DNA of 64,000 nucleotides from an uncultured Bacteroidaceae bacterium (GCA_905236065.1 CAJONZ010000065.1:12285-76284); one strand, 5' to 3'. Positions 18,201 to 46,600 are shown, numbered from the stretch's first letter. Numbers and translations are program-made. Notes: generated by a model from the sequence alone, not told the origin.

Positions 18201-18240
18201 CAACCAACGCCGTGATAAAAAAAGCAAATAATCGTCTCAT
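15214..18240 (-). CDS. Secreted C10-family (streptopain-like) cysteine peptidase with an N-terminal inhibitor-like prodomain and a C-terminal dockerin-like module
   Basis: 1008 aa. Signal peptide MRRLFAFFITALVVGQAMA. Prodomain-like DPIDAVRAKQIAEAF. Catalytic Cys region NRAVTGCVATAASQILYYW and His region GGHAVVVHGY. Last 60 aa: DINADGAFDLADVVDLISMYL...DLDGDGILTTADITLLIQAYMKK. Confidence 0.8.
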   Translation of the reverse strand: MRRLFAFFITALVVGQAMADPIDAVRAKQIAEAFQVLGHDLTLVKRATRNAAKARKLSARVAATSPYYIYSRGEGQGFVIVAGDDCMPQILGYTDAGDFDEATVPPALQDMLTVWTQQVEDAQIAGTNQPVMEAKRRAASSGRTSIAPLMTSHWHQNSPYNDQCPFLTGTTNRAVTGCVATAASQILYYWRKDLPSTLQATTPTYGYGDAPVTESVPKGTEMRWDLMRDSYSGGESTASRAAVAEFVFATGAATWLTYGSSTSGNIEKIPNTFSGYFGMRGGAVYYRDSYTQEYWVQLLYKELQAGRPVMYTGVHSESGGHAVVVHGYQATNDLFYFNFGWGAGNGYDGYYTVDTETGMNGFNGYQSALIGAYPRKWNMTAKINAPNKVYAQRTNTFEVVVENASTLPQSGFYLFAATNKNNPSSLTSAKSSETETVIAQGKSATFELTCKPTNTKPWYITVTDADLNVLNQIEVVPEVASAELAMHSIVANGSADVEEIDGISYAKFYNNRAMVTVNVANEGAIDYEGTAKINILVYDEVLGEWVLNGTKSLSNTVIPAHENRDLVFNVSNVSTCPIAAGKRYCAEINSPWKSLVASDSIDTSKAISQKAYFVVTGESDFAINTFEDGILSFTGHWDRYAFETFVKRAAYNSAIAYDLTQVEALSDDIDNTMLPSQNALIYVAGQQIFQSPNVVNENGVCGNLQLDADYDFQPKAAFSAQQGSLTIGSEIARWYLLTTPFEASVPDGIIARRIDSHKSTGITVSSVTDVDTLEAGHTYLVMSSAYRNRQLTAINEGTSVSVLAAPLENADTAVVGIFASTTIPVGAQLLNDDELQKFVPITEATVVEGLRGYFYDSKLKKQFRAYPSLSLDPAYVTLAKTIQQAYDLLDEYRDSVTINSYNAYADSIHVAEYEFSHRATTTLTTAKLITNYAAHLIELAEDYKAGRLDEQQRYDINADGAFDLADVVDLISMYLAATAESPATVDLDGDGILTTADITLLIQAYMKK

Positions 18241-29887: not shown

Positions 29888-30524
29888 TTTTTATCAGATA
29901 GTCATTAGTTAGCGAAAAATGATGATTCCCGAAAAATCCGCGATAGGCGGACAGCGGGGACGGGTGGGCGGAGCGCAGGATGCAATGGCGGGAACCGTCG
30001 ATGAGCTGTGCCTTGCTCTGGGCATAGCTGCCCCACAGAATGAAGACAAGGTGCTCACGCTGACGGCTCAACGTACTGATGACCGAGTCGGTAAACTGTT
30101 CCCAGCCGTGTTTCTGATGCGACCCAGCCTGATGTTCCCGCACGGTCAGCGTGGCGTTGAGCAGCAGCACACCCTGGGTTGCCCAGCGGCTCAGGTTCCC
30201 CGTCACAGGAATGGGCACACCGAGGTCTGCCTTCAGCTCCGTGAAAATGTTCATCAGCGAGGGCGGAAAAGGCACCCCGTCGTTCACGGAGAAACAAAGG
30301 CCATGCGCCTGCCCAGGCTCATGATAGGGGTCTTGCCCAATGAGCACCACCTTCACCTGGTTGAACGGGCATGAGTTGAAAGCGTTAAAAATCAGGGGAC
30401 CCGGCGGATAGACCTTGTACGACCTGTACTCGCTTTTGACAAAAGCAATCAAGTCGGCAAAATAGGGTTTATCAAACTCAGGCTGCAAGACTTGCTTCCA
30501 ACTCTGTTCTATCTTTACATCCAT
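29862..30524 (-). CDS. ung: Uracil-DNA glycosylase
   Basis: [17 protein letters not shown] and HPSPLSA motifs; 220 aa. Confidence 0.9.
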
Positions 30525-30527
30525 GGC

Positions 30528-30791
30528 CTAAATGAGTCCTGCTTCTTTCCACTGAGCAACAAGTGTCTCGGCATCAGCCGTTGCCGTTGCCTCATCCACT
30601 TCGTACTCATCTAACAGGGCGCGGACAATGTCCTGCAACTCGAAATCCTTGTCCTTCACGGCATTCCATGCCAGGGCTGCCGACTCGTTCAGTGTAATCA
30701 ACTTCGTAAAATCGATGTTCTTCAAACCGTGGGCAACCACGATGTTCTCCCCACAGATGTTGCGCAATTCAAAACCTTCTTTAATTCTCAT
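30528..30791 (-). CDS. PqqD-family (RRE-like) small protein
   Basis: Start moved to ATG 30791 (MRIKEGFELRNICGENIVVAHGLKNIDFTKLITLNESAALAWNAV...), giving 87 aa. Length and pattern match PqqD-type peptide chaperones common in Bacteroidales. A CAAAATTA -7 box (minus strand) lies at 30822. Confidence 0.6.
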   Translation of the reverse strand: MRIKEGFELRNICGENIVVAHGLKNIDFTKLITLNESAALAWNAVKDKDFELQDIVRALLDEYEVDEATATADAETLVAQWKEAGLI

Positions 30792-30821
30792 AATATTCTT
30801 TTGAGTTTCTTTTATTTTTTG

Positions 30822-30829
30822 CAAAATTA
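30822..30829 (-). promoter_or_regulatory. -7 box TAATTTTG (PqqD-like/ung/PBP1A/kdsB string)
   Basis: CAAAATTA on the plus strand, 31 nt upstream of start 30791. Confidence 0.45.
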
Positions 30830-30923
30830 GCAACTTCCCCGTAAATCCGCAAAACTTTAAAGAAAAATCTTGGTTCACGTCCCTTTTCCCCACACCCACA
30901 CGCCTTTCACACATGCAAAAATG

Positions 30924-31001
30924 ACGCAGAACTCTATCGAAGACAACGCAGAACTCTTCTCGATTCCACGCAGAACTCTACAAACGAAAAGAGTTCTGCG
31001 T
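30924..31001. repeat. Array of four 12-mers ACGCAGAACTCT (three direct, one inverted)
   Basis: Perfect direct copies at 30924..30935, 30946..30957 and 30968..30979 (22-nt period). A perfect inverted copy AGAGTTCTGCGT lies at 30990..31001 and forms a 12-bp hairpin with copy 3. Confidence 0.85.
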
Positions 31002-31099
31002 GAAAATAGAAACAGATTTATTGGGGCTCAGAAGGGGTTATGCCAAAATTTCAACAAAAAAATTAAATATTTATTGCTTTCATTTCAGAATAAAGTTAG

Positions 31100-31107
31100 T
31101 ATATTTG
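31100..31107 (+). promoter_or_regulatory. -7 box TATATTTG (DUF2442 gene)
   Basis: Exact match 91 nt upstream of ATG 31198. Confidence 0.4.
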
Positions 31108-31197
31108 CACATTGGAAACGATTATAAAGAAAAGCTGCTCCACCAACGGAAATTCTTCAACTTCTGAGCATATAAAATAAAGAAAAATAAATAGCCT

Positions 31198-31464
31198 ATG
31201 TACAAAACAGAAGGATATTGGAATGTGGTGCCGAAGATAAAGCGGCTTTCGTTCCCCAAACGAGGAAAGTTTCAGGTCGATTTGCAAGATGGTCGTAGCA
31301 TCGTAATGCCCTTCTCTGCATTTCCTTCCCTGAAGCGTGTTCCCGTCAGTGAACGTCCAAAATGGTATCTCATGGGCGGAGGCGTAACATGGGATTCCTG
31401 TCCAGAAGTCATTCACATTGAACAGATTCTGGGCAACTATCAAAACTATGCCCATGAAGTATGA
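31198..31464 (+). CDS. DUF2442 family protein
   Basis: 88 aa. FQVDLQDGRSIVMPFSAFPSLKRVPVSERPKWYLMGGGVTWDSCPEVIHIEQIL fits the DUF2442 pattern. A TATATTTG -7 box lies at 31100. Confidence 0.55.
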   Translation: MYKTEGYWNVVPKIKRLSFPKRGKFQVDLQDGRSIVMPFSAFPSLKRVPVSERPKWYLMGGGVTWDSCPEVIHIEQILGNYQNYAHEV

Positions 31465-31741
31465 CGAACAACAATAAACTCAATATTAACAATTTAAAAA
31501 CATTTCATTAACCATGTGGCACTGAGCTGAATGACATATTAACATAATACTTGGACTTCGTGTCCTTGTTCTTGTTCATCTGAATTACCGCCAATTATTC
31601 ACGTATGAGGACAGGCATTGCAAGTTCACGTCCGTTGGGCGTGGATTGTTCTTGCTTTCTATACGTGAGGCGTACTTGGCGGTAAGCCCAGATGAACGGA
31701 AATGCATCAGAGCAGTTCCGCCTTTTTTATTTCTATTCACT

Positions 31742-32130
31742 ATGAAAAAGCTATTCCCTTCTATGGCTGCAGCCGTACTGACAACCAAGGCTTTGCCCAA
31801 AACGTAGTAGCGACCTTGAGCCACGGCAGTAAATTCACAACGTTCTATGGCGCACAGACCTTTGTCAATGCCCATGCTGATGCCCTGCATGGCGACGTGA
31901 TTACCTTGTCGGGGGGTTCTTTTGCTCCTGTCAACATCACCCAAGCAGTCACAATCCGTGGCAAAGGCATGAAGCCAAATACAAATAGTGGCGTGCCCAC
32001 AACCATTTTTGGATATTTCTCTGTGAGCATTCCTGATTCTATTGATGGCGCATTGACAATGGAAGGGCTATACCACAATTTTACCATAACCTTCCCCAAT
32101 TTACTATATGAATTGGAGGACAGCGTGTAG
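31742..32130 (+). pseudogene. Frameshifted, truncated remnant of a secreted beta-helix-type surface protein
   Basis: ATG 31742 encodes the signal-like peptide MKKLFPSMAAAVLTTKALPKT and then hits a stop. A different frame (track ORF 31702..32130) continues ATLSHGSKFTTFYGAQTFVNAHADALHGDVITLSGGSFAPVNITQAVTIRGKG, which resembles the N-terminus of large Bacteroidales surface proteins, and ends after about 140 aa. Confidence 0.5.
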
Positions 32131-32179
32131 TCTGAGGTGGATAAGAATTTATGGAATTATAAAAAATAATACGATAACA

Positions 32180-32503
32180 ATGATTAATTTAAAATTCCCT
32201 GTCAACGAAATTGACAATGACAAATTTCAGGTCATTGTAGATATGTCGTTATACGCAAAAGAATCTCTCGTAGCGGCGTGTTACAAGTTTACGGACCTCT
32301 TTTACATCCATCAACAATCAATAGATAATAACGTAGAAGTAGTCTTTGAATCCAAGGATGGCAATACTGTTACAAATACTACAATTAAACAGTTTTGCAA
32401 TGAACTCATAGACCAGCAGGTTCGCTATAATACGAATCTGCAATTTGGCCATATCCGTGATTTAATAGTTGAAGAAGCATTTACATGGCAAAGACATCAG
32501 TAA
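32180..32503 (+). CDS. HxsD-like small protein (His-Xaa-Ser system protein D family), orphan
   Basis: Start moved to ATG 32180 (MINLKFPV...). LYAKESLVAACYKFTDLFYI...FCNELIDQQVRYNTNLQFGHIRDLIVEEAF matches my memory of the HxsD pattern (aaY.ftd, F.NeL.dq.lR, iR.li...AF). No radical-SAM partners are present. Confidence 0.45.
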   Translation: MINLKFPVNEIDNDKFQVIVDMSLYAKESLVAACYKFTDLFYIHQQSIDNNVEVVFESKDGNTVTNTTIKQFCNELIDQQVRYNTNLQFGHIRDLIVEEAFTWQRHQ

Positions 32504-32582
32504 TCCGAAATTTTGTGTAAAAATGCAGTAAATTTCGAATTGAAATAAGCATGAGAAACGTGAAAGAGTGGAGAAAGAATCC

Positions 32583-33149
32583 CTACCCTCGCATGAAACG
32601 ACGGGGTAATTTATGCTGCCAAAGCAGGCGGTAAAGGGCTAAGAGATAGCGACGAAGGGGAAACAGGCGGGGCCAGAGGAAAGAATAGACTTTCCAGGCG
32701 GTGGAGGTGTCGAGGTTGTAAGGTTTGTTTTTCCGAATGACGGTAATGAGGCGGGCACGAACGTCTTGAAGCCGACATTGTTCTGTGCCTTGTACGTTGC
32801 CATCACCTCGCATCGTTAAGCGGTCGCCATCAAGACGTTCTACTCGATGGCAGACAAAAACACCCTTGGAGATTTCCGCCAGTACCACGTCCCCCACCCT
32901 GACACGGTCAACCTGCGCAAAGACCAGACGGTCGCGGTTGTGCTCAATGAAGGGCATCATGCTATAGCCACGGGCAATGATGGTGCCAGTAGCGCCTTCC
33001 TCGGCCATTTGTGCCAAAAAGAGCGGGATGAATTTTTCATTGGGAAAAAGCTTGACGGGGTACTCGGGTTCCTTCCTTGGGCGAGCCGACCCGAATCTCC
33101 GCAGACGGCGACATAGACGCAACAGTTTTGACCAAAGACGATGAATCAT
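32583..33149 (-). CDS. S24/S26-type (LexA/signal-peptidase-like) serine peptidase
   Basis: GTIIARGYSMMPFI (GxSMxP nucleophile motif) followed by a beta-rich core. Preferred start is ATG 33149, which forms an ATGA overlap with the stop of the upstream kinase-like gene. Confidence 0.6.
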   Translation of the reverse strand: MIHRLWSKLLRLCRRLRRFGSARPRKEPEYPVKLFPNEKFIPLFLAQMAEEGATGTIIARGYSMMPFIEHNRDRLVFAQVDRVRVGDVVLAEISKGVFVCHRVERLDGDRLTMRGDGNVQGTEQCRLQDVRARLITVIRKNKPYNLDTSTAWKVYSFLWPRLFPLRRYLLALYRLLWQHKLPRRFMRG

Positions 33150-34054
33150 ACGGCACGGATGGTTTCGTAGCTCAAGCGACAAGCTGCCTCATCGGGCAAA
33201 CATTCAAGAAGATAGGTCGGAACACGCTGCATGACGGCAGAAACGGTATCGCAGGTGCAAACGTAGTTGCGATCGTCCCATTTCATCACGGAACAAGAGG
33301 GCAAGATGGAGGCAAAAGACTCCACGACCGTTTGACGGCGGATTTTATTATAGGGAGCCTGCTGCAACTGCAAGAATGCGCCAATCGGTGCCTCCACATT
33401 ACGATAGCAGGGAGTCTTTCCACTCCACGGAGAGCCATAGACCGTCGCAATGCCTTCAGGCGTGAGACGCACGACGGGGTTGTCGTCGTTCATCAGGTCG
33501 GTGCCGGGAATGTGCTTGAGCCAGAGCCCTGTATGTGTGCTTTTTCCCGTACCACTCACACCGAGGCAGAGATACCCATAACCGTCCTTCCGAACAACAG
33601 AGGCATGAACAAGCAGGGTGTTCTGAAGGGAACCGGCAAAGGCGTACATCATCATGAGCGCATTGTTGAGTCCAAAGGTACACATGTCGTAATTACCATT
33701 AAGACAGACCTTTGCAGTGGAGAAGTTGGAAGGGAACTCCAATAGGCAGCACTGGCGGCCCTGAACGTCGGAAACCAGAATCTGATAAGTGCCATCAGGC
33801 AAACGATAGACACCATGATTGTTGCCACCACAGTCGAACTGGCCGATTTCCATGCCTTTGGATGCTGGACGCCATGCGTCGTCAACGGTCAACGTGAAAA
33901 GGTAGTTGCCATCAGCGGGCTCATCCACACGGAACGGCTCGCTGGAAGGCAGGAGACGAGAAGAGTTTTTCCCGTCGTTGAAACTGATTTTATAATGATG
34001 GCCGCCTACACGATAATAGGCGGTCGTCGCTTGAATGTCTTTTTCTTTTTCCAT
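33146..34054 (-). CDS. HPr-kinase C-terminal-domain-like P-loop protein (HprK-related kinase)
   Basis: 302 aa. LLVHASVVRKDGYGYLCLGVSGTGKSTHTGLWLKHIPGTDLMNDDNPVV parallels the HprK C-terminal core (HA..v...G.gvli.G.SG.GKS.....L......l..DD). The N-terminal 150 aa or so are unassigned. Confidence 0.55.
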   Translation of the reverse strand: MEKEKDIQATTAYYRVGGHHYKISFNDGKNSSRLLPSSEPFRVDEPADGNYLFTLTVDDAWRPASKGMEIGQFDCGGNNHGVYRLPDGTYQILVSDVQGRQCCLLEFPSNFSTAKVCLNGNYDMCTFGLNNALMMMYAFAGSLQNTLLVHASVVRKDGYGYLCLGVSGTGKSTHTGLWLKHIPGTDLMNDDNPVVRLTPEGIATVYGSPWSGKTPCYRNVEAPIGAFLQLQQAPYNKIRRQTVVESFASILPSCSVMKWDDRNYVCTCDTVSAVMQRVPTYLLECLPDEAACRLSYETIRAV

Positions 34055-34078
34055 ATCAAAGGAAGCGTGAGTGTGTCA

Positions 34079-35404
34079 TTAGTTCCCTGTCTCCGTGGTG
34101 TTGCGCTTGGTAGGCCAGACGGCCTTTGCCCAGTCGGTTTCGTAGTATCCGGTAGCAAACCATTTGTTTCTCAGGGCATATTTCTGAAGCGGTATGTACA
34201 TGGTCACTCCACTGTATTGCAGAGGGTCAACCCTATTGTCTGAGCGATTGTTAAATACGGAATACCAATGGTCGGTATGCGCCTGACTCAAGAACATGGT
34301 AGAGAACTGAGCGTTCCAGGTTTCAAAATCCTCCTCACTGAGAGCAGCCTTCATTACGCCCCGCATGTCATAATAATCGGAGTAAGGATTTCTGTAATAA
34401 TAATCCCATTTGAAATAGTTCAGCACATTGGAATAGTCCATATTGAGCAAGGTTTCCTTGTATTGCTCAAGGTATGGCTGCGTGATGCTTGCCACATACT
34501 CCAGTTTGGAACAATCCACAGCGGACAACAGGATTCCGTAGAGTTGGTCGGTGGCATAATAATTATAATAGGCATCGGTCATTCCCTCTACGTAGCCACT
34601 GTCTGAGAACATCGGGCCAATCATCTGATGGTATGGTGCCCCCTCTCCAGGCACTTCAGCCGGAGAAGCAATGATATAGCGTGTGCAGTTGCGAAGCTGA
34701 TAGAGCACCTCTATGTTCTGCATAAAACAAGCATCAAAAAGAATGAAATCAACTGGGCCGAAATTCAGCAAAGCACGGCGCATGTCGTCGATGGAAAGCT
34801 GCGAACCAGCATTGGCCACGGTATTCAGGCCATTATCATAGCCAAAAGCACGACGAGGTTTGGCACCCCATGACTCTGAATGATTGGCATCAGCTTCCGG
34901 TTGGGGAGGAAGCCAACCGGAGCCATGTGACCAGAACACCAAGCGATAGTTCTGCGAAGGATAGTTGCCTTTAATGTATTGCAAAACACTGTCCAACACC
35001 TCGTATGAACAAGAGTTGAGGTCTTGCTCATAGGTTTTTACAGGGGTAAGACTGTTGAAACTTTCATTTTGGCTTGCGGCGGTTATGTCATAGATTTTAG
35101 GCAGTCCCGTGTTGTCGGTGTAAAGAATCAGATGGTCTGTCTCGCCGACGTTTTTCATGCCTCCCAGCATTTCGTTGATGTCCTTGGACATATTTCCTGC
35201 CAAAGAATTTTCTGCCGCCATATAAACAATGACTACCTTCCCGATTTGGGGATTGGGTTCTTCCTCTTGTTCGTCATTCTTGCAGGAAACAGCCACGAAA
35301 ACCAGCAGCAAAAGACACAAGAAAAACTTCAGACTGGCAAAAACTTCCGTCGCAGCGTTGCGAAGAAGCGGCAAGGATGTCATATATTGATTTGTCTTAT
35401 TCAT
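34079..35404 (-). CDS. C11 (clostripain-family) cysteine peptidase, lipoprotein
   Basis: Lipobox FVAVSC. VIVYMAAENSL, catalytic His in VFWSHGSGWLP and Cys in ILFDACFMQNIEV. Confidence 0.75.
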   Translation of the reverse strand: MNKTNQYMTSLPLLRNAATEVFASLKFFLCLLLLVFVAVSCKNDEQEEEPNPQIGKVVIVYMAAENSLAGNMSKDINEMLGGMKNVGETDHLILYTDNTGLPKIYDITAASQNESFNSLTPVKTYEQDLNSCSYEVLDSVLQYIKGNYPSQNYRLVFWSHGSGWLPPQPEADANHSESWGAKPRRAFGYDNGLNTVANAGSQLSIDDMRRALLNFGPVDFILFDACFMQNIEVLYQLRNCTRYIIASPAEVPGEGAPYHQMIGPMFSDSGYVEGMTDAYYNYYATDQLYGILLSAVDCSKLEYVASITQPYLEQYKETLLNMDYSNVLNYFKWDYYYRNPYSDYYDMRGVMKAALSEEDFETWNAQFSTMFLSQAHTDHWYSVFNNRSDNRVDPLQYSGVTMYIPLQKYALRNKWFATGYYETDWAKAVWPTKRNTTETGN

Positions 35405-35452
35405 AAAGCATGGCTTATATCAAGATTGACCGATAGTAAACAACTGCGTGTG

Positions 35453-36040
35453 TTATTGTGCGGCCTCCACCTTGTCTTGATTCATCAAATCAAGCGGATG
35501 GATGAAATGAAACTGGTCGGTCGAAATGGTTGTGACAACGCTGTTGGGCTTGGATAGCAGACGGTGTTTAACTTTCGTCAAACGTTTCTGTAATTTCTTT
35601 TTGTTCGTATCAAAAAAGACGCTGGTCGTCTGCTTGACCAGGCCCAGTTTTCCTTCCGTATATTGCTGAAGCTGAATGCTGAAAAAAGAGCGAAACGGAA
35701 GGAACTTAGTCTTTTTCTGCAACGAGATGCTATCTACCTCATTGATGTCCGTTACATAAACTTCATCTTTCCCCAACGTGAGGGAAACGCCAAAGACATA
35801 GACTTTTCCGTTCGTCTTTTCCAGGGCGAACTCATTCACTGTCTCTTTGGAACTCTTGCCTTTCTTAACCTCTTGCTTTTGCGCCTTGGCTTTCTGCTTT
35901 TTTATCTTTTCGTTACCTTCCAGACTGTTTGGCATCCTTCCGTCAGGATTCGTCTGACCGGCAACCTGTGCCCGGAGCGGCAATAGCGTTACGAACAGCA
36001 TCAGGGCAAAAAGGGGCGATTTGTATTTTATATGCATCAT
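35453..36040 (-). CDS. Hypothetical secreted protein
   Basis: The track start 36064 is GTG. ATG 36040 gives MMHIKYKSPLFALMLFVTLLPLRAQ (signal peptide). A Lys-rich linker follows, then a conserved-looking C-terminal domain. No family recognised. Confidence 0.4.
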   Translation of the reverse strand: MMHIKYKSPLFALMLFVTLLPLRAQVAGQTNPDGRMPNSLEGNEKIKKQKAKAQKQEVKKGKSSKETVNEFALEKTNGKVYVFGVSLTLGKDEVYVTDINEVDSISLQKKTKFLPFRSFFSIQLQQYTEGKLGLVKQTTSVFFDTNKKKLQKRLTKVKHRLLSKPNSVVTTISTDQFHFIHPLDLMNQDKVEAAQ

Positions 36041-36160
36041 GATGTATTGTAAGAAACAGAACACTCGGTATTGTGTGTGAAAGTGTCTCTGTGGTTTATA
36101 TTTTCTTTTAAAAACAGGAAACGGGGGATTGGAATCCCCCGATTAGATGTAAAGCACAGC

Positions 36161-37021
36161 TTAACCCAAATAAGACTTGAGCAATTTACTCCGCGAATTA
36201 GCACGGAGACGGCGGATGGCTTTTTCCTTGATTTGTCTTACACGCTCACGGGTGAGATTGAAGCGGTCGCCAATCTCTTCGAGCGTTTTTTCTTGTTCGC
36301 CAATGCCGAAAAACATGCGGATGATATCCTTCTCACGAGGGGTCAGCGTGTCGAGTGTGCGGTCAATCTCCTTGGCCAGCGACTCGCTCACCAATGAGCG
36401 GTCGGCCATCGGTGAATCGTCGTTCACCAGCACATCCAACAGGCTGTTGTCCTCTCCCTCTACAAATGGTGCGTCAACACTGATGTGACGGCCACTGACC
36501 TTCATCGTGTCGGCCACCTTGTCAACCGGGAGTTCCAACTGCTCCGCCAGTTCCTCTGCAGAAGGACGTCGTTCGTTTTCCTGCTCAAACTTTGAAAATG
36601 CCTTGCTGATTTTGTTAAGAGAACCAACTTGATTCAAAGGAAGACGGACGATGCGGCTCTGCTCGGCCAAAGCCTGAAGGATGCTCTGGCGAATCCACCA
36701 AACCGCATAACTGATGAACTTAAAACCACGGGTTTCGTCGAATTTCTCGGCTGCCTTGATAAGACCCAGATTTCCCTCGTTGATGAGGTCGGGCAAACTC
36801 AAACCCTGATTCTGGTACTGTTTTGCTACAGAAACGACAAAACGCAAATTGGCTCTGGTCAGTTTTTCAAGCGCACGGCGATCTCCTTTACGGATACGAC
36901 CGGCAAGCTCTACTTCCTCTTCCACCGTAATCAAGTCTTCACGACCGATTTCCTGCAAATACTTATCAAGCGATGCACTCTCTCGATTCGTGATACTTTT
37001 CGTAATCTTTAATTGTCTCAT
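36161..37021 (-). CDS. rpoD: Primary RNA polymerase sigma factor (Bacteroidota sigma-A)
   Basis: Start moved to ATG 37021 ([26 protein letters not shown]), giving 286 aa. Region 2 [13 protein letters not shown]; region 4.2 [33 protein letters not shown] -7 box lies at 37083. Confidence 0.9.
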
Positions 37022-37082
37022 ACAAAAGATAAAATGATTTACATGTGGCGCATACGTATGTACACAACACACGTTTGAAGTA

Positions 37083-37090
37083 CAAAGGTA
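37083..37090 (-). promoter_or_regulatory. -7 box TACCTTTG (rpoD)
   Basis: CAAAGGTA on the plus strand, 62 nt upstream of start 37021. Confidence 0.5.
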
Positions 37091-37262
37091 CGAAAAAACA
37101 TCCATACCCGTGCATTCAAACGTGTATTTTTAAGATTTATTGTACAAAAAGCTGTCGGCATCAGACTTTGATTCCTGTTTACGGCTCAAATGAAGTACAA
37201 CAAATTGAATAAGTTCCTTCAGCTGACCCACGCTCAAACCTATAGGTCAGCATAGACAAATC

Positions 37263-37724
37263 TTACTTTTTCTCTTTCAAAAGGTCGCGGATTTCAGCAA
37301 GCAGCACTTCCTCATGGGATGGTTCGGGCTCGGGAGCCGCTTCTGCTACAGCTGCCTCTTTCTTCTTCTTGAGCTCCGTCAAACGGGTAATACCCTTAAT
37401 CATGAAGAAGATGGCCAATGCGATAATCAGGAAGTCAATGACATTCTGGATGAACATGCCATAGTTCAGCGTGACAGCCTCTGTAGCCGCAGCCACCTCG
37501 TTCCCTGCCTCATCAAGAACTGCAGGAGCAGCATCCTTCAGAACCATCTTCAAGTCCTTGAAGTCAACGCCACCTGTAAGAACTCCAATAGGAGGCATAA
37601 TCACGTCGTTCACCAACGAACTAACAATTTTTCCAAAAGCACCGCCGATGATAACACCGACAGCCATGTCAACCACATTGCCCTTCAGTGCAAATGCCTT
37701 GAAATCATCAATGAATTTTCCCAT
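37263..37724 (-). CDS. mscL: Large-conductance mechanosensitive channel
   Basis: [40 protein letters not shown]; 153 aa. Confidence 0.9.
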
Positions 37725-39280: not shown

Positions 39281-42200
39281 TTACACGGTAAAATAATCAA
39301 AGCCAACGATGGTGTGAACGAAACGACGGACGTAGTCGAACGCCGTGGGTGGCCATTGAAAGCCGAAACGGTAAAGAACCTGGGTGGTATAGTCATTGTC
39401 AGACTCAATCCAGCGCATGTCGTGGCTATTGCTGAGATTGTAGGCCATCAAGGGACGGAGGAGGGTAACAAGGTCGGGATTGGACATCATTTGTTCAAGA
39501 GCCTTCTGGAAATCCTCCTTCTCCACCCGAGGAAGCTTGATACCGGCAATGGCGAAACCCGTAAGGATGTCTGCCATATACTGACGGTGGACGTTGTAGG
39601 GATGAAAAACAGTACACTCACGAGGAGTGGTTGCGAGAAGCATGATGGCATGAGCCACCTCATCGACGGGCGAGAACTCGAATACCTGACTAAGCGCTTC
39701 GTAAGGCACCATGCCAATGATAACGTAGGCACGGAGCAGGGCCAAGAAATTGTTCGTGTTGAAATTAATCTGGAACTCGCCGTCCTTCTGGCGTGCAGAT
39801 AGGTTGCCAACGCGCATAATCTTGGCATTTAGGCCTTGGTTGGCGATGGCATCGAGGACTAACTCCTCTGCCTTGTATTTGGAATAGACATATTTATTCT
39901 CGTCAATGTTTTGGCCGAGCCAAAGGTCTTGCTCCGTGAGTTTGACATCAGGACCAGGGAAACCATCGACACTGAGACCGGCAATACTGGTTGTAGAGAT
40001 ATGGATAAGACGGGAACCTGTGCGCAAACAGAAAGTGATGAGATGGCGCACAGACTCGATGTTGACCATTTCGATGTCATTGCCGGCAGAGAAGTGCTTG
40101 ACATTAGCGACGCAGTTGACAACAGTCAATTGATTGTTGAGACTATCGAAGGCTTCGGGCTTGATAACCTCGGCAGCAAAGACTTGAACGCGATTATCGA
40201 AGTGACGGAAAGCTTCGGTCTTACCAAAATAGTAGAAGTACAAGGATTTGAGTCGGCTGAAAGTCTTTTCGTCGCTCTTTGCCCGGATAGGACAGAGGAT
40301 GCGGCACTCGTAATGCAATAGCAACTCATTGAGGATGTGCATACCGAGGTAACCTGTAGCGCCTGTAAGCAATACATCGCCAATGGGCTGACGCTCGCCA
40401 TTGCGGAAAGCATCAAGAGTATTGGCTGCCAGAACCTCCCTTACTCCACATGGAAGGGAAACGACTGTACCATCATTCGCAGCGGGCAGAACGGCGGCAG
40501 CTCCTTTCCCTTGAACCCTGTCCTTTTGGGAAAGGGATACAGATTGGGGCTGTAATTTCTCTTTTGCCAAAAAGACGGCGAGAGAACGGGGAGTCTTTTG
40601 GTTGAACAAGTCGTTAAAGACAATCTGCACACCATGCTTGCCGGCCTCCACAATTACTTTGATAGCATTGAGACTGGTGCCGCCAATCTCGAAGAAGTCG
40701 TCGAGGGCACCCACTTGCTCAATGCCGAGAACCTCAGCGAAGATGTTTGCAAAAAGCTGCTCCGTTTCGCCTTCGGGAGCGACGTATTCTGTGGCACGTT
40801 TCAATTCGGGCACAGGCAGCGCCTTGCGATTAATCTTGCCGTTGGGTGTCATGGGCATGGTTTCGAGACACATGTAGGCATCAGGCACCATGAACTCAGC
40901 CAATGACGATGCAGACAGAGCAGCACGAATAGAGTCCTCACTGAGAGAAAAGCCATCAGCCACAGTATAATAAAGTACGAGATGTTCGTTGCCCATAACC
41001 TTGCGAACTTCGGCTGCTGCCTGACGGATGCCGTCTATGTTCAGTGCCTTGCTCTCGATTTCGCCGAGTTCAATGCGGAAGCCACGCAATTTCACCTGGG
41101 TATCTATGCGCCCAAGGTACTCAATCTGTCCGTCGTCGTTCCAACGGCAAAGGTCGCCCGTGTGATACATCTGGACTGGGCGCCCCCAACGGTCAGCCTC
41201 AACGAAGGGACAATCGACAAACGACTTGGCCGTGCGTTCAGGCAGTCGCCAGTAACCCCATCCCACTTGTACTCCGGCAAAGCAGAGTTCACCAGCCACC
41301 CCCTGTGGCACAAGATGTCCTGCGGTATCGACGATGAAATTCCAGTTGTTGGCAACGCTTTGGCCAATGGGAATGTTTTCCACGCGGCATCCTGGAGCAA
41401 TCCTATAATAAGAAGTGTCGTCGGTACATTCGGTAGGCCCGTAAACGTTGATTATTTCGATGCGGTCGCTAAAAACACCGTCCATTTTCTCACCACCACC
41501 GGTAATAAAGCGGATGGGCAGGTCGTCGAAGGTGTTGAGCAACAAACAAGTCATGGCTGTCGAATAGCCACCACCAGTGATGCGGTGTTCAATGAGGAAC
41601 TGACGGATGGCATTAAGATCCTTGCGGATTTCCGTCGGCATGATATGGAACGAACCGCCAAGGGTGAGCACGGGATACATGTCCTCGATGTGGGCGTCGA
41701 ACGAGAACGAACGATGGCCACTGATGCGGTCTTCGGACGTCAAATGCTCCATATCGATGACCACGGCAATGAAATTCCTCAGACCAGCCTGATGGAGCAT
41801 GGCGCCTTTCGGCTTTCCTGTGGAACCACTGGTGTAAATCATGTAAGCGAGGCCGTCAGGCTTCGACAGGTCGATGGGGACGTCCGACGAAGAACCGTCG
41901 GAAACAGTACCCTCAGCCATGAAGTCATCAATGAAGAAAGTCTTGGCTAAAGCAGTATCAAAATTCCCTTCTGCTTTTTTTGCTTCAAGTACTTCATGCG
42001 TAGTAATCAAAACCTTCGACTCGGAGTTCTCCAACATATAACTCAGACGCTCATTGGGATATTCGAAGTCAAGAGGCGTATAAGCGGCGCCAGCTTTGTG
42101 GATGGCAAGGACGGAGAGTGGAAACTCTTTGGTGCGGTCAAGCATGACGCAGACGAAATCATCGGGCTTTACACCAAAGTCGATGAGCCGATGAGCCAGT

Positions 42201-43630
42201 GCATTAGCGTAACAATCCATTTCAGCGTAAGTCAGTTGACTGTCCTTATCCACGACGGCAGGGGTATCGGGAGTCCGTTGCACCTGTTCTGTAAAGAGGT
42301 TGGCGAAAGTCTTGCTCAGATCCACGTCAATATCCTTACCCTTACCTATATGATTGATAAGATGTGCCGCTTCGTTGTCACTGACGATACTGATACTATC
42401 AATAGCATCGTCAGCATGTGCCATCATCTGCTCCATCGTGGCCTTCATTGCATCGGCCATCATGCGCATGGTTTTTCGGCTGTTCATGGCCAGGCTCGAT
42501 TCCATGCGGATGTCATAATTATCGCCCACTATGAATCTATGAGCCAGCATGTCGTAGAATACGTCGCCACGATCCTGCTGCACGAACTTACAGTGCGTAT
42601 CACCAAAGTGGTATTCCTCTTCCCAGCCGGGCAGAGCCGTAAAATTAAACGAGATTCCAGGCTGCACACCTAAGTCACGGCAGAAGTGAGAGAAGGGATA
42701 GGCCAATTGCGACAACGTGGCCTTCATTTCTGTATGGACTATAGCGATATACTCGCGCACGCTCTGCTCCTTCCGAATCTCCATCATAAAAGGAATCGTA
42801 CGCACGAACATGCCGTAAGCCTGCTTCACACGCGGATCACGACGACCATGAAAGATGGTCGTGTAGGCCACCTTCTCCTCGCGCAATAGTCGGGCAAGCA
42901 CATAGCTAAACGCTGCCTGGAATATCTGATACGGAGCAAAGCCATTTTCCTTGCACCAGTCATCCACCATTACCCGGTTGATGTAAGCAGACTCCTGCCC
43001 CATCTCGCCCACAGGATTCTCGGGCCGTACCGACAGCGTCGCCAAATCTACTCCCGCATATTTCTCTTGCATCACCGCCTTCGCCTGCTCATATTCCTTA
43101 TTGCCTAAGCAAGCAGACTCATCCTCGGCAGCCTCCAGCATTCCGTATTCCTGTACGGGAAGCGGTTTACCCTCGTATGCCAATGGCAGGTCTCGCTGTG
43201 GGAACAAGGTCAAGTAGCTTGTCCCATCGGTGACCATGTGATGAATATCGACCAACAGGTAACGCTTTTCAGGGGTGGTCACGAGCTCCACACGTATCAA
43301 CGGCTCGTCGCCCATGATATCGAATGGTCTGCAAAAGGCATGGTGGGCATAGTCTTGGAAGTCTGTCTCTGTCATCTCACGACGAACGATGGTAAGACGC
43401 TTTGTCTCATCCACATACTGCCGTGGTTCACCTTTTTCATCGATAAGGAAGCGCAAACTCAGTTCCTTGCGGGCGGCAAAAACGGTCTGCAAAGCAGCGT
43501 CCAAGCGGTTGAGGTCTATCTCGTCGTTCAATGGTACGATGCAGGGGACATTGTACTGCATGACGTGAGGAAACTTCAGACAATCGTAAAATACGCCAAG
43601 CTGAGATTGAAGCAAAGGAAAAGTAACCAT
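39281..43630 (-). CDS. Nonribosomal peptide synthetase, single module C-A-T-R
   Basis: 1449 aa.
- C domain: about nt 42326..43630, HHMVTDG at 43223..43243.
- A domain: about nt 40811..42310 (YTSGSTGKPKG, NVYGPTE, YHTGDL, GRIDTQVKLRGFRIELGEIE, NGKINRK).
- T domain: about nt 40565..40774, GGTS Ser codon at 40673..40675.
- R domain: about nt 39284..40384, TGATGYLG at 40343..40366 and YVYSK.
Motif coordinates were verified by back-translation. Confidence 0.9.
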   Translation of the reverse strand: MVTFPLLQSQLGVFYDCLKFPHVMQYNVPCIVPLNDEIDLNRLDAALQTVFAARKELSLRFLIDEKGEPRQYVDETKRLTIVRREMTETDFQDYAHHAFCRPFDIMGDEPLIRVELVTTPEKRYLLVDIHHMVTDGTSYLTLFPQRDLPLAYEGKPLPVQEYGMLEAAEDESACLGNKEYEQAKAVMQEKYAGVDLATLSVRPENPVGEMGQESAYINRVMVDDWCKENGFAPYQIFQAAFSYVLARLLREEKVAYTTIFHGRRDPRVKQAYGMFVRTIPFMMEIRKEQSVREYIAIVHTEMKATLSQLAYPFSHFCRDLGVQPGISFNFTALPGWEEEYHFGDTHCKFVQQDRGDVFYDMLAHRFIVGDNYDIRMESSLAMNSRKTMRMMADAMKATMEQMMAHADDAIDSISIVSDNEAAHLINHIGKGKDIDVDLSKTFANLFTEQVQRTPDTPAVVDKDSQLTYAEMDCYANALAHRLIDFGVKPDDFVCVMLDRTKEFPLSVLAIHKAGAAYTPLDFEYPNERLSYMLENSESKVLITTHEVLEAKKAEGNFDTALAKTFFIDDFMAEGTVSDGSSSDVPIDLSKPDGLAYMIYTSGSTGKPKGAMLHQAGLRNFIAVVIDMEHLTSEDRISGHRSFSFDAHIEDMYPVLTLGGSFHIMPTEIRKDLNAIRQFLIEHRITGGGYSTAMTCLLLNTFDDLPIRFITGGGEKMDGVFSDRIEIINVYGPTECTDDTSYYRIAPGCRVENIPIGQSVANNWNFIVDTAGHLVPQGVAGELCFAGVQVGWGYWRLPERTAKSFVDCPFVEADRWGRPVQMYHTGDLCRWNDDGQIEYLGRIDTQVKLRGFRIELGEIESKALNIDGIRQAAAEVRKVMGNEHLVLYYTVADGFSLSEDSIRAALSASSLAEFMVPDAYMCLETMPMTPNGKINRKALPVPELKRATEYVAPEGETEQLFANIFAEVLGIEQVGALDDFFEIGGTSLNAIKVIVEAGKHGVQIVFNDLFNQKTPRSLAVFLAKEKLQPQSVSLSQKDRVQGKGAAAVLPAANDGTVVSLPCGVREVLAANTLDAFRNGERQPIGDVLLTGATGYLGMHILNELLLHYECRILCPIRAKSDEKTFSRLKSLYFYYFGKTEAFRHFDNRVQVFAAEVIKPEAFDSLNNQLTVVNCVANVKHFSAGNDIEMVNIESVRHLITFCLRTGSRLIHISTTSIAGLSVDGFPGPDVKLTEQDLWLGQNIDENKYVYSKYKAEELVLDAIANQGLNAKIMRVGNLSARQKDGEFQINFNTNNFLALLRAYVIIGMVPYEALSQVFEFSPVDEVAHAIMLLATTPRECTVFHPYNVHRQYMADILTGFAIAGIKLPRVEKEDFQKALEQMMSNPDLVTLLRPLMAYNLSNSHDMRWIESDNDYTTQVLYRFGFQWPPTAFDYVRRFVHTIVGFDYFTV

Positions 43631-43651: not shown

Positions 43652-46600
43652 TTATTCAAAGAAACCAAATCCACCAATCGCTTTCAGCATACGCTCCACA
43701 TAGTCCCAAGAGGTGGGTGAAAATGCAAAGCCAAGGCGATAAAGCACCTGCGTGGTATAGTCATTATCCCTATCCACATCGGTTGTCTTCTGTCCGTGAG
43801 CCATATCCTGATAGGCTAAAAGCGAAGCCAACTGGCGTGCTTTCTGCGGATTGTCCTTAGCGGCTTCCATCGCTTGGGCAAATTCTTCCTGTTCTACGAA
43901 CTGAATGCCATTACCCACAGTGGAAAGCCCCATGAGCACATCGCCTAGGAACTGGCTGTGAATGTTGTAGGGATGGAAGACCGTGCAGTTGGATGGCGTG
44001 GTGGCCAAAAGCACGATGGAATGGCTCACCTCATTGATGGGCGAGAACTCCACCCGCTTGTTGCGCATTGCGTATGGGCAACAACCCAGCATGTTGTAAA
44101 CCCGGATGCGCCCCATGAATGAATTGGTAGAGAAGTTGGCCTGGAACTCACCGTCGGAGGAACGGGCTGCAAGATTGCCCACACGCATAATCTTGGCTTT
44201 CAGTCCGTGATTGATAATCGCATCAAGGATGAGTCGCTCGGCCATGAACTTTGAGTAAATGTACTTGTTTCCAAGATATTGCCCCATGTATAGCCGCTGT
44301 TCGGTGAAGACTGGAGATTGGAGAGTGGCTGCACATGAATTCATCTTCGATTTTCCATCTTCAATCCACAGGCCGCGCGTACTGGCCGTAGAGATATGGA
44401 CAAGCGTGGCACCTGTCTTGATACAGAAATCCACACAGCGCTGTGCGCCGCCAATGTTCACATCCTCTATCTCCGTACCCTCAGAAAAGTGCTTGACAAT
44501 CGCAGCACAATTAAAGACCGTGGATAACGGATAGTCGATATCTGCCAACTTCTCCGTCAGGTCTTCGGTCACGTCACCAAGGATGACGTGGATGCGAGTA
44601 CCAAAAAGGGACTTGAAGGAGTCGGCAAAGTAGTAGAAGAGGAGGGTGCGCAGACGGCTCTCGGCCTTTTCCTTTGTCTTGCCACGCACCAGACAGTAGA
44701 TATGCTCTGCATCGGAATTGATCAATTCGTGCAGAATGTGAATACCCAGATATCCCGTGGCACCCGTCAGGAGCACATTACCTAACTTGCGGAGCTCACC
44801 TTTACGGAAGTTGTCGAGCGTATTCTGTTGGAGAAGGTCGTTAATGGCAGTATAGTCGAAGTCCTTCTCCGAAGGAACTGCGGACGTGGAAGACTCAGAG
44901 GGTACAGACTCGCCAGTGATGAGTTGGGCAAGCTGACGTGGAGTCGGATTGGCAAAGACATCGCCGTAGGCCACATGCAGTCCGGCTTTGTCGGCTTCAA
45001 TGATGACACGGGTTACGACCAACGAGGTACCACCCAACTCAAAGAAGTTGTCGGTAGCCCCTACCCTTTCCATCTGCAAGATGTCGGCAAAGATGTCACA
45101 GAAAGCCCGTTCGGTATCATTGCCCGGAGCCACGTATGCCGATGTGACGGCCAATTGCGGTTCGGGCAAAGCCTTCACGTCTGTCTTGCCGTTGGGGGTC
45201 ATAGGCATTTCCTTCAATTGCAAATAAGCCGTTGGCACCATGTACTGTGTCAGACTCTTGGAGATTTCAGCCTTCAATGCGTCCGGCGCAATCTCACGGT
45301 CGGCTGTGTAATAGGCACAGAGATGTTCCTTACCACCCAGTTTGCGGATGAGAATCACCACTTTCTTCATGCCTTCCACCTTCAGCATCACATTCTCTAT
45401 TTCACCCAATTCGATACGCAGGCCACGAAGTTTAATCTGATGGTCGGTACGTCCGAGTATCATGACATCTCCATCTGGCAACCACTTCGCATAGTCGCCT
45501 GACTTATAGACACGCACACCATGATAATCCACAAAGCGTTCACGGGTCATCTGGTCAAGATTATTGTAGCCACGAGCCACGCCACGGCCACCAATGTACA
45601 ATTCACCTACCACTCCTGCAGGCAACTCGTTGCCGTCGCTGTCAACCACAAACTCCTTCACGTTGAGCTGGGGCTTGCCCACAGTAACCAACTTCGCATG
45701 GGTCAGTTCCTTGTTGTTCGAGGCCACGGTAATCTCCGTCGGACCATAGCAATTGAAGATGCGGGCCTGGGTGACACTGCGCATTTTTTCCAACAGGCTT
45801 TCGCTGAACTTCTCACCACCAGCACGACATATCTTGACCTGGGAGATGGCATTGCAGAAGTCATCACTGGTGAGCCACGTCTGCCAACGGGAAGGCGTAC
45901 CCGACACCATGTTGATATGCTGTTCTTGAATGAGATGGGCCAGGTCAATCGGGTTGTTGGCTTGTTCCTCTGTAGCTACGATGAGCGTCTTGCCATTAAA
46001 ATAGGCCATACCAATGTCCTGCAAAGCTGCATCAAACGAAATGGTGGTTACGCTGAGTATGCGGTCGGCATCGGTCAGCACCCCATGGGCAAAAACGTTG
46101 GCCGGATGCCCATAGAGATAGTTGCAAATACCTTCGTGACGCAACATCACACCTTTCGGACGTCCTGTGGAGCCACTGGTATAGATTAAGTATGCGAGGT
46201 CATCGGGGGTCAGGTTCACAGAGGGTTCTGAGGACGTAGAAGAAGAAGCCAGGAGGTCTTCGACGTTGAGTACTTTCTCAGCATCGAAACCAGTGGCCTT
46301 CTCCGAGTTCTCTGTAGTGATAATATAACGTGCCTCGCTATCCTCCAAGATGAGTTTGACACGGTCTGCCGGGTATTCCGGGTCACAAGGAATATAGGCA
46401 GCCCCCGCCTTCAGCACACCGAAGAGTGCCAGGATGAGGCGGCTAGTACGCGGCAGGAGCAGGGCCACCCGGTCGCACTCCTTCACACCACGCTGATGCA
46501 GGGCGGCAGCGATGCGGTCGGTCAGTTCATCCATTTCCTGATAGGTGTATCGACCATCAATGGCCACAAGTGCCTCATGATTGGGCTGTATCTTGGCAAA

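Follow-up and report, generated by a model that had tools for sequence, protein, structure and literature searches.

Gene content and conservation of the locus

The window analysed here, a 64-kb stretch (64,000 nt) from the genome of an uncultured Bacteroidaceae bacterium (GCA_905236065.1, CAJONZ010000065.1:12285-76284), carries on its minus strand the genes for a ScmC/HprK-like kinase (hereafter K), a peptidase resembling signal peptidase I (SpI) and the S24 peptidases (S), and a PqqD-family protein (B), a recognition element (RRE) for peptides that are made on the ribosome and modified after translation (RiPPs). They are preceded by the gene for a signal-peptide protein, named hyp203. A first-pass annotation, made from the sequence alone, had described the chemistry of this gene set as unknown, but the parts list matches that of the characterised linear polyphosphorylated peptide (LPP) system (PMC13381572). 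The features of the locus are as follows, with the basis of each assignment in brackets:

35453..36040, minus strand: hyp203, 195 aa, first gene of the unit, Prevotellaceae-specific
34079..35404, minus strand: C11 (clostripain-family) lipoprotein peptidase (PF03415)
33146..34054, minus strand: K, ScmC/HprK-like P-loop protein (precomputed Pfam PF27840, motifs)
32583..33149, minus strand: S, SpI-like (archaeal/SipW-type S26B, 'S24-like') peptidase (LppS homology, motifs)
30792..32582, no strand: AT-rich 1.79-kb islet between S and PqqD (gap statistics and alignment with locus L004)
30924..31001, no strand: four repeats of the 12-mer ACGCAGAACTCT, at the islet edge proximal to PqqD
30822..30853, minus strand: Bacteroidetes-type promoter-like motif (consensus match)
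30528..30791, minus strand: B, PqqD-family RRE, 87 aa (PF05402)

The four minus-strand open reading frames (ORFs) that the first-pass annotation had grouped as a peptide-maturation set (C11, K, S and PqqD) were all present, together with their GVSGTGKST/NDDNP and GYSMMP motifs. The K gene starts 24 nt past the stop codon of the C11 gene, and the ATG of S overlaps the TGA of K as ATGA (33146..33149). A gap of 48 nt separates hyp203 from the C11 gene on the same strand. Neither hyp203 nor the HxsD-like gene of the islet described below had been singled out in the first-pass annotation.

The conserved gene order was established from ORFs called in 84 related loci, from ~80 Prevotellaceae species, and matched to the window proteins (the loci compared with the window are labelled L001 and so on). 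At least 593 relatives of K were confirmed in GTDB species genomes, and Prevotellaceae-type names or synteny mark the best 80 of these. Among these 80, four (L042, L052, L054 and L065) come from bins named Flexilinea, Clostridia, Lachnospiraceae and Paratractidigestivibacter and yet show Prevotellaceae synteny; these odd taxon labels are probably binning or labelling errors. Cultured carriers of the module include Prevotella veroralis DSM 19559, Hoylesella marshii and Hallella multisaccharivorax.

The run conserved across the 84 loci consists of rpoD, hyp203, K, S and PqqD, with K, S and B co-linear; the link to rpoD is missing in some loci. Since K, S and PqqD recur in this order in more than 80 species, their arrangement is far beyond chance. 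From the stop codon of S to the start codon of PqqD the median gap is 24 nt and the maximum 537 nt, and the two genes overlap by 4 nt in 16 of 83 loci; the corresponding distance in the window is 1,791 nt. Where the AT-rich islet is absent, the K, S and PqqD genes are contiguous. The gene ung follows PqqD in only 7 of the 84 loci, so that PqqD travels with K and S and not with ung or PBP1A, the partners whose constant company would have spoken against the grouping.

The kinase-like protein K

K belongs to a large family, with 7,061 clusters at 50% identity when E-values up to 1e-3 are admitted and 682 at E up to 1e-30, whose members are named 'hypothetical protein' throughout in the source records. 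The precomputed Pfam assignment of K is PF27840 ('ScmC'), and some PF27840 matches are flagged as weak. The invariant elements are H150, the P-loop GxSGTGKST (with K171), the motif NDDNP (with D190/D191) and the motif WSGKTxCY. The AlphaFold2 (AF2) model of K (pLDDT 95, pTM 0.91) matched ATP-PEPCK (E 4e-8) and HprK/P (1knx, E 6e-5) in Foldseek, which indicates superfamily membership only. When the K profile was compared with PDB sequences the matches were at the level of the P-loop only (PEPCK, E 0.015; HprK/P, E 0.9), and the HAS...GxSGTGK stretch of K aligned with PEPCK. We take H150, K171 and D190/D191 to correspond to the catalytic His, the P-loop Lys and the Asp-Asp positions of PEPCK and HprK/P. 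Because its conserved residues sit at these catalytic positions, K is likely to be an active phosphotransferase, and it is predicted to be an ATP-dependent peptide Ser kinase.

The core of HPr-kinase type proposed for this protein in the first-pass annotation agrees with the motifs and with the PEPCK/HprK fold, but the thresholds of the dedicated models were missed. The window protein gave no match to Hpr_kinase_C (PF07475) at E up to 0.1, and it scored 21.8 bits on TIGR04352 and 14.7 bits on TIGR04355 (cut-off 200 in both cases) and 21.5 bits on TIGR04249 (cut-off 125). Membership of the HPr-rel-A or GAK groups was rejected on the first two of these scores; a SynChlorMet cassette was rejected on the third and on the lack of a radical-SAM gene in the window.

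Two relatives of K, P0331 and P0359, reached 29-31 bits on PF07475, against a cut-off of 33.3. Both are tandem duplications of the ScmC-like domain in which one copy has degenerate motifs, a layout that suggests a dimeric enzyme. In a single further record (P0256) LpxB is fused to a ScmC-like domain, which may be a gene-calling artefact.

The peptidase S and its relationship to LppS

The conserved elements of S are G61-x-S63-M, H101-R, G115-D-G-N118 (GDGN, which includes D116) and E123, with S63, H101, D116 and E123 invariant, and a conserved helix, W..L.P.RRYLL..YR, at the C-terminus. The protein has no N-terminal membrane anchor. On PF00717 it scored 22.4 bits, just below the cut-off of 23.3, and its best NCBIfam match was the archaeal-type signal peptidase I model TIGR02228 (E 0.008). 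Against LexA structures the S profile gave only E 0.1-0.3, and the HMMER alignment stopped just short of the general-base position. His101 presumably occupies the position of the LexA general-base Lys (VTVKRL in LexA, FVCHRV in S). Judged by its motifs and matches, S appears to fit the S26B/SipW type better than the S24/LexA type. Its earlier description as a serine peptidase of S24/S26 type therefore holds for the S26B/SipW-type fit and the GYSMMP motif, although the PF00717 threshold was missed.

The closest functional precedent is found in the LPP clusters (lppA-K-B-S-D-N) of Paenibacillus alginolyticus (Popov et al., Nat Commun 2026, PMC13381572). Their core comprises the SpI-like peptidase LppS, the discrete RRE LppB, the HprK-like kinase LppK, the nucleoside triphosphate (NTP) transferase LppN and the MsbA-like pump LppD, and the precursors are 35-200 aa long with a YxxP leader (PMC13381572). 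LppK adds several phosphates to Ser3 of the core, and LppS (S29/H68/D93) cuts the leader only when it is presented by LppB, the unphosphorylated precursor being a poor substrate (PMC13381572).

Using the LppS sequence given in Supplementary Data 1 of PMC13381572, BLASTP aligned S with LppS at E 4e-9, with S63 placed on S29 and H101 on H68; the GDGN Asp116 of S aligned with D87 of LppS. Comparison of the S family profile with LppS by hhalign gave a probability of 97.2% (E 3e-11). The similarity was more pronounced to a Dehalobacter peptidase of cluster 4 of the sequence similarity network (SSN) in the same supplement (28% identity, E 1e-16). From this homology and these motifs, S is predicted to be an RRE-dependent leader peptidase.

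The PqqD-family protein B

B scored 56 bits on PF05402 (cut-off 23.4) and is a stand-alone RRE. Among the families named in the first-pass annotation, PF05402 and, for the C11 protein, PF03415 were thus matched above their cut-offs, in contrast to PF07475, PF00717 and the TIGRFAM kinase models. In PDB searches the B family profile matched TfuB1 (E 2e-6), PbaB1 (0.027), TbiB1 (0.07) and LppB (0.29), and the pairwise similarity of B to LppB was weak (E 0.006). The Dehalobacter RRE that is paired with a SpI-like peptidase was 38% identical to B (E 3e-19).

Exporter-linked cassettes and K-S fusion proteins

In many relatives of K, the K and S moieties form one protein of 430-545 aa (PF27840 plus PF00717). 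Such K-S fusions are direct genomic evidence that K and S act together, and the poor cleavage of the unphosphorylated precursor described for the LPP system fits with selection for their fusion in Bacteroidales.

Six contexts that are not syntenic with the Prevotellaceae loci were found in more distant Bacteroidales, the bins including a Phocaeicola sp., Candidatus Egerieousia and a Prevotella sp. In all of them K(S)-PqqD is followed by the gene for an ABC exporter of 525-555 aa, and because the flanking genes differ in each of the six contexts, the cassette itself is the unit. The exporter is present in the sister cassettes L085-L095 and, among the NCBIfam models, most resembles exporters of the type-I-secretion, MsbA and bacteriocin kinds. 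The cassette of L093 comes immediately after an NTP_transf_5 gene (PF14907), and PF14907 was also found in L100. The RREs of the cassettes with hyp203 and of those with the ABC exporter are 40-47% identical, which suggests that both cassette types handle the same kind of RRE ligand.

No ABC transporter was detected in the window or adjoining the module in the Prevotellaceae loci, and an NTP transferase of the LppN type was absent from the window. Pfam scans of all large ORFs of the window also detected no radical-SAM enzyme, lasso cyclase or B2 protease, in agreement with the first-pass annotation as regards the lasso cyclase and the radical-SAM enzyme. None of the module proteins was matched to a known defence system by PADLOC.

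Search for the substrate peptide

The earlier statement that the window has no recognisable substrate gene was corroborated, since scans for small ORFs, for YxxP motifs and with a leader hidden Markov model (HMM) gave no credible precursor there. An all-versus-all comparison of 12,291 small ORFs from the surroundings of the module in 90 loci revealed no conserved adjacent precursor and gave only PqqD and ORFs that are shadows of the conserved genes, and the YxxP regular expression and the leader HMM found nothing credible in L001-L092. Beside the cassette of L085 there is no room for a precursor ORF.

A 47-aa ORF, MNKKQYQKPTMQVIELQHNPQLLQSSGDQWLNYAPGQPGTEEYNAKA, was located in L093, 460 nt upstream of the NTP_transf_5 gene, and a metagenome scan retrieved 13 further loci. 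The resulting family has 42-47 aa, with a leader of the form MKKKQYQKPTM.VV.LQ...LLQ[AS]SG and a core that is hypervariable in sequence, acidic and rich in Trp and Tyr. In L100 a peptide with a YxxP leader lies directly before the NTP_transf_5 gene, and in L101 another lies before a decayed cassette with PqqD. The YxxP leader of these peptides is similar to the [Y/W]xxP leaders found in LPP precursors (for example MKKLTYKAPEVLNHKPITFET, followed by SQSW...) and in lasso precursors. This resemblance to LPP precursor leaders supports a RiPP-type function for the L093-type branch.

Two or three paralogous YxxP peptides per contig were seen in L097, L104, L106 and L107, before a gene for a lipoprotein of ~440-540 aa or after a very large surface-protein gene. 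These multi-copy peptides, on mostly short contigs, are unlinked to any cassette. The occurrence of YxxP peptides away from cassettes means that the precursors can be unlinked.

The signal-peptide protein hyp203

A homologue of hyp203 lies directly upstream of K in 79 of the 84 loci, often with a 4-nt overlap, and thus in the position that lppA holds in the lpp clusters. The protein consists of a signal-peptide-like N-terminus (recognised in 75 of 80 homologues), a variable Lys-rich linker and a conserved α/β domain of ~110 aa, and it carries a conserved Lys/Arg-rich helix. The core was modelled by AF2 with pLDDT >90, Foldseek gave no structural match in the PDB below E 0.6, and no Pfam or NCBIfam family was matched. 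A YxxP motif is present in one of the 80 homologues; that of the window copy is not conserved. Of the two cassette types, one goes with hyp203 and the other with the ABC exporter, so that the two genes exclude each other.

A preprint describing AMP-SEMiner (10.1101/2025.01.13.632881) reports 'AMP_c423', derived from a signal-peptide protein of human and pig gut microbiomes that is flanked by PqqD and Peptidase_S24. There the S24 protein was taken for a signal peptidase whose substrate is the protein encoded next to it, and synthetic AMP_c423 peptides, the only form tested, were antimicrobial (10.1101/2025.01.13.632881). The arrangement described matches hyp203-K-S-B, and differs in that the preprint makes no mention of a kinase-like gene. 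By this neighbourhood, and not by sequence, hyp203 is probably the host protein of AMP_c423.

These observations raise the possibility that K, S and B modify and cleave hyp203 itself, releasing a cationic 'encrypted' antimicrobial peptide, with Sec taking the place of the ABC exporter. The lppA-like position directly upstream of K, the mutual exclusion with the exporter and the Lys/Arg-rich helix all fit, as does the length of LPP precursors, which reach 200 aa (PMC13381572). The active AMP_c423 peptides come from a similarly flanked protein, probably hyp203. However, the pattern of conservation in hyp203 is the reverse of that in a RiPP precursor, the N-terminus being variable and the C-terminal domain conserved and confidently folded, and YxxP is all but missing from the homologues. 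Moreover, neither S nor K has a signal or membrane segment, which means that their action would have to precede Sec export, and the RRE is closely similar to that of the ABC-type cassettes, which have no hyp203. On balance we regard hyp203 as an unlikely substrate.

The C11 peptidase

The C11 protein scored 187 bits on PF03415 (cut-off 25.8) and has a lipobox-like ...VAVSC after its signal sequence, followed by an acidic stretch. By these features it is probably an exported lipoprotein of the cell surface, whereas K, S and B would be cytoplasmic. In the nine closest loci (L001-L009), as in L096, an independent assembly that is 98.5% identical, its gene is flanked by hyp203 and K; it is absent from that place in the other 75 loci.

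If the C11 protein were an extra processing peptidase, all four genes singled out by the first-pass annotation would form one maturation system. The shared strand, the short gaps of 24 and 48 nt to the neighbours and the persistence of the arrangement in the nine closest loci and in the independent assembly could be taken that way. That 75 of the 84 loci and all of the ABC-type cassettes do without the gene, and that the lipoprotein signal and acidic stretch probably place the product on the cell surface, away from K, S and B, makes such a four-gene system very unlikely. The C11 gene is a lineage-specific insertion and a bystander, not a core member. The grouping of K, S and PqqD thus stood, and the inclusion of C11, tempting but wrong, is corrected.

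The AT-rich islet and the promoter-like motif upstream of PqqD

Locus L004, the nearest islet-free relative, aligns with the window as far as the stop codon of K (33146) and again from the start of PqqD, with nothing between; the S gene had no blastn match of its own in this alignment. Given the short S-PqqD gap in 83 loci and the alignment of L004 on either side only, the AT-rich stretch (GC 0.35-0.47) is an insertion. One end of it is also present in L096 at 98.5% identity. No similarity to plasmid or phage collections was detected for the islet, which contains the following genes:

31198-31464, plus strand: DUF2442 gene
31646-32130, plus strand: frameshifted remnant of a signal-peptide protein, MKKLFPSMAAAVL..., resuming in another frame
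32108-32503, plus strand: orphan HxsD-like gene, convergent with the module (TIGR03976, 79.5 bits, cut-off 50)

No radical-SAM gene that could represent the His-Xaa-Ser partners HxsB/HxsC was found among the large ORFs of the window, and an HxsA-D His-Xaa-Ser system was ruled out on this ground. The 12-mer ACGCAGAACTCT occurs in four exact copies with 22-nt spacing, three direct and the last inverted, so that hairpins are possible, just upstream of the promoter-like motif of PqqD. Its copies are unique in the window, where 0.29 matches were expected by chance, and it was absent from 109 other loci.

The promoter-like motif, TTTG-N20-TAATTTTG, ends 30 nt upstream of the PqqD ATG and is the sole match on the minus strand in 30500-37300. 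At least one match was found in 7.6% of shuffles of this 6.8-kb region and in 2.8% of shuffles of the local 600 nt. The window holds seven matches, five of which, that of PqqD included, lie just upstream of gene starts. From the motif upstream of PqqD and this preference for gene starts, PqqD-ung-PBP1A-kdsB are now probably transcribed separately from K-S, through a candidate promoter at 30822..30853.

The module of this genome might be a decaying remnant, disabled by the islet and by the loss of the exporter. A 1.8-kb insertion does split the otherwise tightly coupled S and B genes, the islet contains a broken gene, and a decayed cassette exists elsewhere (L101). The ORFs of K, S and B are nevertheless intact with every invariant residue, a promoter-like motif lies directly upstream of PqqD, and the configuration persists in the second assembly at 98.5% identity. 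Decay is therefore most unlikely.

Other genes of the window

A terminator-like hairpin follows rpoD, and ung, PBP1A and kdsB lie downstream of PqqD in the lineage of the window. Two nonribosomal peptide synthetase (NRPS) genes are located 4 kb upstream of rpoD, one (39281-43630, minus strand) of C-A-T-reductase organisation and the other (43652-50992, minus strand) multi-modular and ending in a reductase domain. They are a separate small-molecule cluster that in relatives is not linked to the module. Exported proteases are numerous in the window, among them a C10 (streptopain-family) cysteine peptidase of 1,008 aa with an N-terminal Spi inhibitor prodomain (15214-18240, minus strand) and an M6 peptidase (3719-5854, minus strand).

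Proposed role of the module

We read K, S and B as an LPP-like module through which, under guidance by the RRE, a precursor encoded elsewhere is phosphorylated on Ser and freed of its leader, and hold this reading with a confidence just above even. Its three elements, namely phosphorylation, leader cleavage and a precursor supplied in trans, we infer from gene order, fusions, homology, folds and motifs. In the cytoplasm B would bind the leader of a ribosomal precursor and present it to K, which would spend ATP on phosphorylating a Ser close to the junction of leader and core, and likewise to S, which would remove the leader by means of its Ser63/His101 centre. In most non-Prevotellaceae Bacteroidales the product would then be exported by the adjacent MsbA-like ABC exporter, in some cases after decoration by NTP_transf_5. 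The Prevotellaceae version, which sits by rpoD, would have lost the linked exporter and the NTP transferase and gained the co-transcribed hyp203; the gene for its precursor would have to lie at some other place in the genome. In the lineage of the window, the C11 gene has been inserted after hyp203 and the islet has split S from B, leaving B apparently with a promoter of its own.

Several observations weigh against this assignment. No precursor candidate was found in the 64 kb of the window, nor up to ~8 kb from the module in 80 Prevotellaceae loci, and the window has neither an exporter nor an NTP transferase. K lies below every curated HprK-type threshold, and B is nearer to generic lasso B1 proteins than to LppB. 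Asp93 of LppS aligns with the variable Thr122 of S, only the neighbouring Glu123 and the GDGN Asp116 being invariant. In this genome the islet parts S from B and may impair their coupling. Finally, vertical conservation beside rpoD throughout the family contrasts with the patchy horizontal distribution of LPP clusters and could mean a housekeeping role.

This last point leads to the view that in Prevotellaceae the module has been domesticated for a housekeeping or regulatory task, such as controlling an envelope or sigma-factor-related protein through phosphorylation and proteolysis, and does not make a secreted peptide. The near-universal syntenic place by rpoD across Prevotellaceae, the lack of an exporter and of a linked precursor, the envelope genes PBP1A and kdsB downstream in this lineage, the LpxB-K fusion record and the absence of any defence-system match agree with it. 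The linkage to ung, PBP1A and kdsB is, however, confined to 7 loci, some loci lack the link to rpoD, and the ABC-type cassettes occupy unrelated contexts; the LpxB fusion is one record and perhaps a gene-calling artefact. The set of components, together with the ABC exporter and the YxxP peptide of the sister cassettes, points instead to peptide maturation, and we consider a regulatory role quite improbable.

Under the LPP-like reading, a homologous module in Bacteroidales would extend the LPP class beyond Bacillota to abundant gut, oral and rumen bacteria. The natural K-S fusions back a biochemical coupling of phosphorylation and leader cleavage, and the cultured Prevotellaceae carriers provide a tractable model for product and function. 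A bolder proposal, which we put forward as a doubtful one, is that Prevotellaceae domesticated the LPP-type trio as a vertically inherited, family-wide module whose product is either a conserved phosphopeptide with an unlinked precursor gene or hyp203 in a phosphorylated or processed form. If true, dominant bacteria of the gut, mouth and rumen would, through the domesticated trio, secrete a phospho-molecule of a new kind, and the hyp203 option would amount to RRE-guided modification of a secreted protein, not of a classical RiPP precursor.

Comparison with known systems

Lasso peptide clusters of the paeninodin type share with the module the predicted RRE-guided modification by a kinase of the HprK superfamily, an optional nucleotidyltransferase, an ABC exporter and a stand-alone RRE of lasso type, and differ from it in that a serine SpI-like peptidase is found here in place of the B2 cysteine protease. 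A lasso cluster was rejected, because neither an Asn-synthase-like cyclase nor a B2 protease was present in the window or among the called genes of the related cassettes. The Prevotella-type locus is reportedly called 'RRE-containing' by antiSMASH through Stand_Alone_Lasso_RRE (10.1101/2025.01.13.632881). The ScmC, HPr-rel-A and GAK kinases likewise have a P-loop core of the PEPCK/HprK superfamily beside a PqqD-family protein, but radical-SAM/SPASM enzymes (ScmE/F) are lacking in the module, as are ATP-grasp and CofD-like partners.

The closest published sequences to S and B are the pairs of SSN cluster 4 from Dehalobacter and Anaerocolumna (Supplementary Data 1, PMC13381572), which share the RRE start MKIKEGF.LR and the peptidase tail W..L.P.R....YR. 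In contrast to the present module these pairs belong to Bacillota, and they are listed there as uncharacterised, with no precursor recorded. The Bacteroidota entries of SSN cluster 8 (Paludibacter, Porphyromonadaceae) show a third architecture, in which a SpI-like peptidase is fused to an ABC transporter beside an RRE.

The LPP clusters are described as restricted to Bacillota, patchy, horizontally transferred and located within capsule loci, with an unknown biological role (PMC13381572). The module shares with them a putative kinase of the HprK superfamily, a stand-alone PqqD RRE and a cytoplasmic SpI-like peptidase, to which the sister cassettes add an MsbA-like exporter and NTP_transf_5. 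The homology of S to LppS includes the alignment of the catalytic Ser and His and a hydrophobic helix that both have at the C-terminus, and one cassette branch (L093, L100 and L101) has precursors with YxxP leaders. The differences are that the genes occur here in Bacteroidota and not in Bacillota, that the order is K-S-B instead of K-B-S with K and S often fused, that the RRE is weakly similar to LppB and that the position of LppS Asp93 is not conserved in S. Besides, the Prevotellaceae module lacks the exporter, the NTP transferase and a linked precursor and has a linked signal-peptide protein. As far as these sequence comparisons go, the Bacteroidales cassette is a distinct branch with the LPP parts list, a homologous peptidase, the order K-S-B and frequent fusion of K to S.

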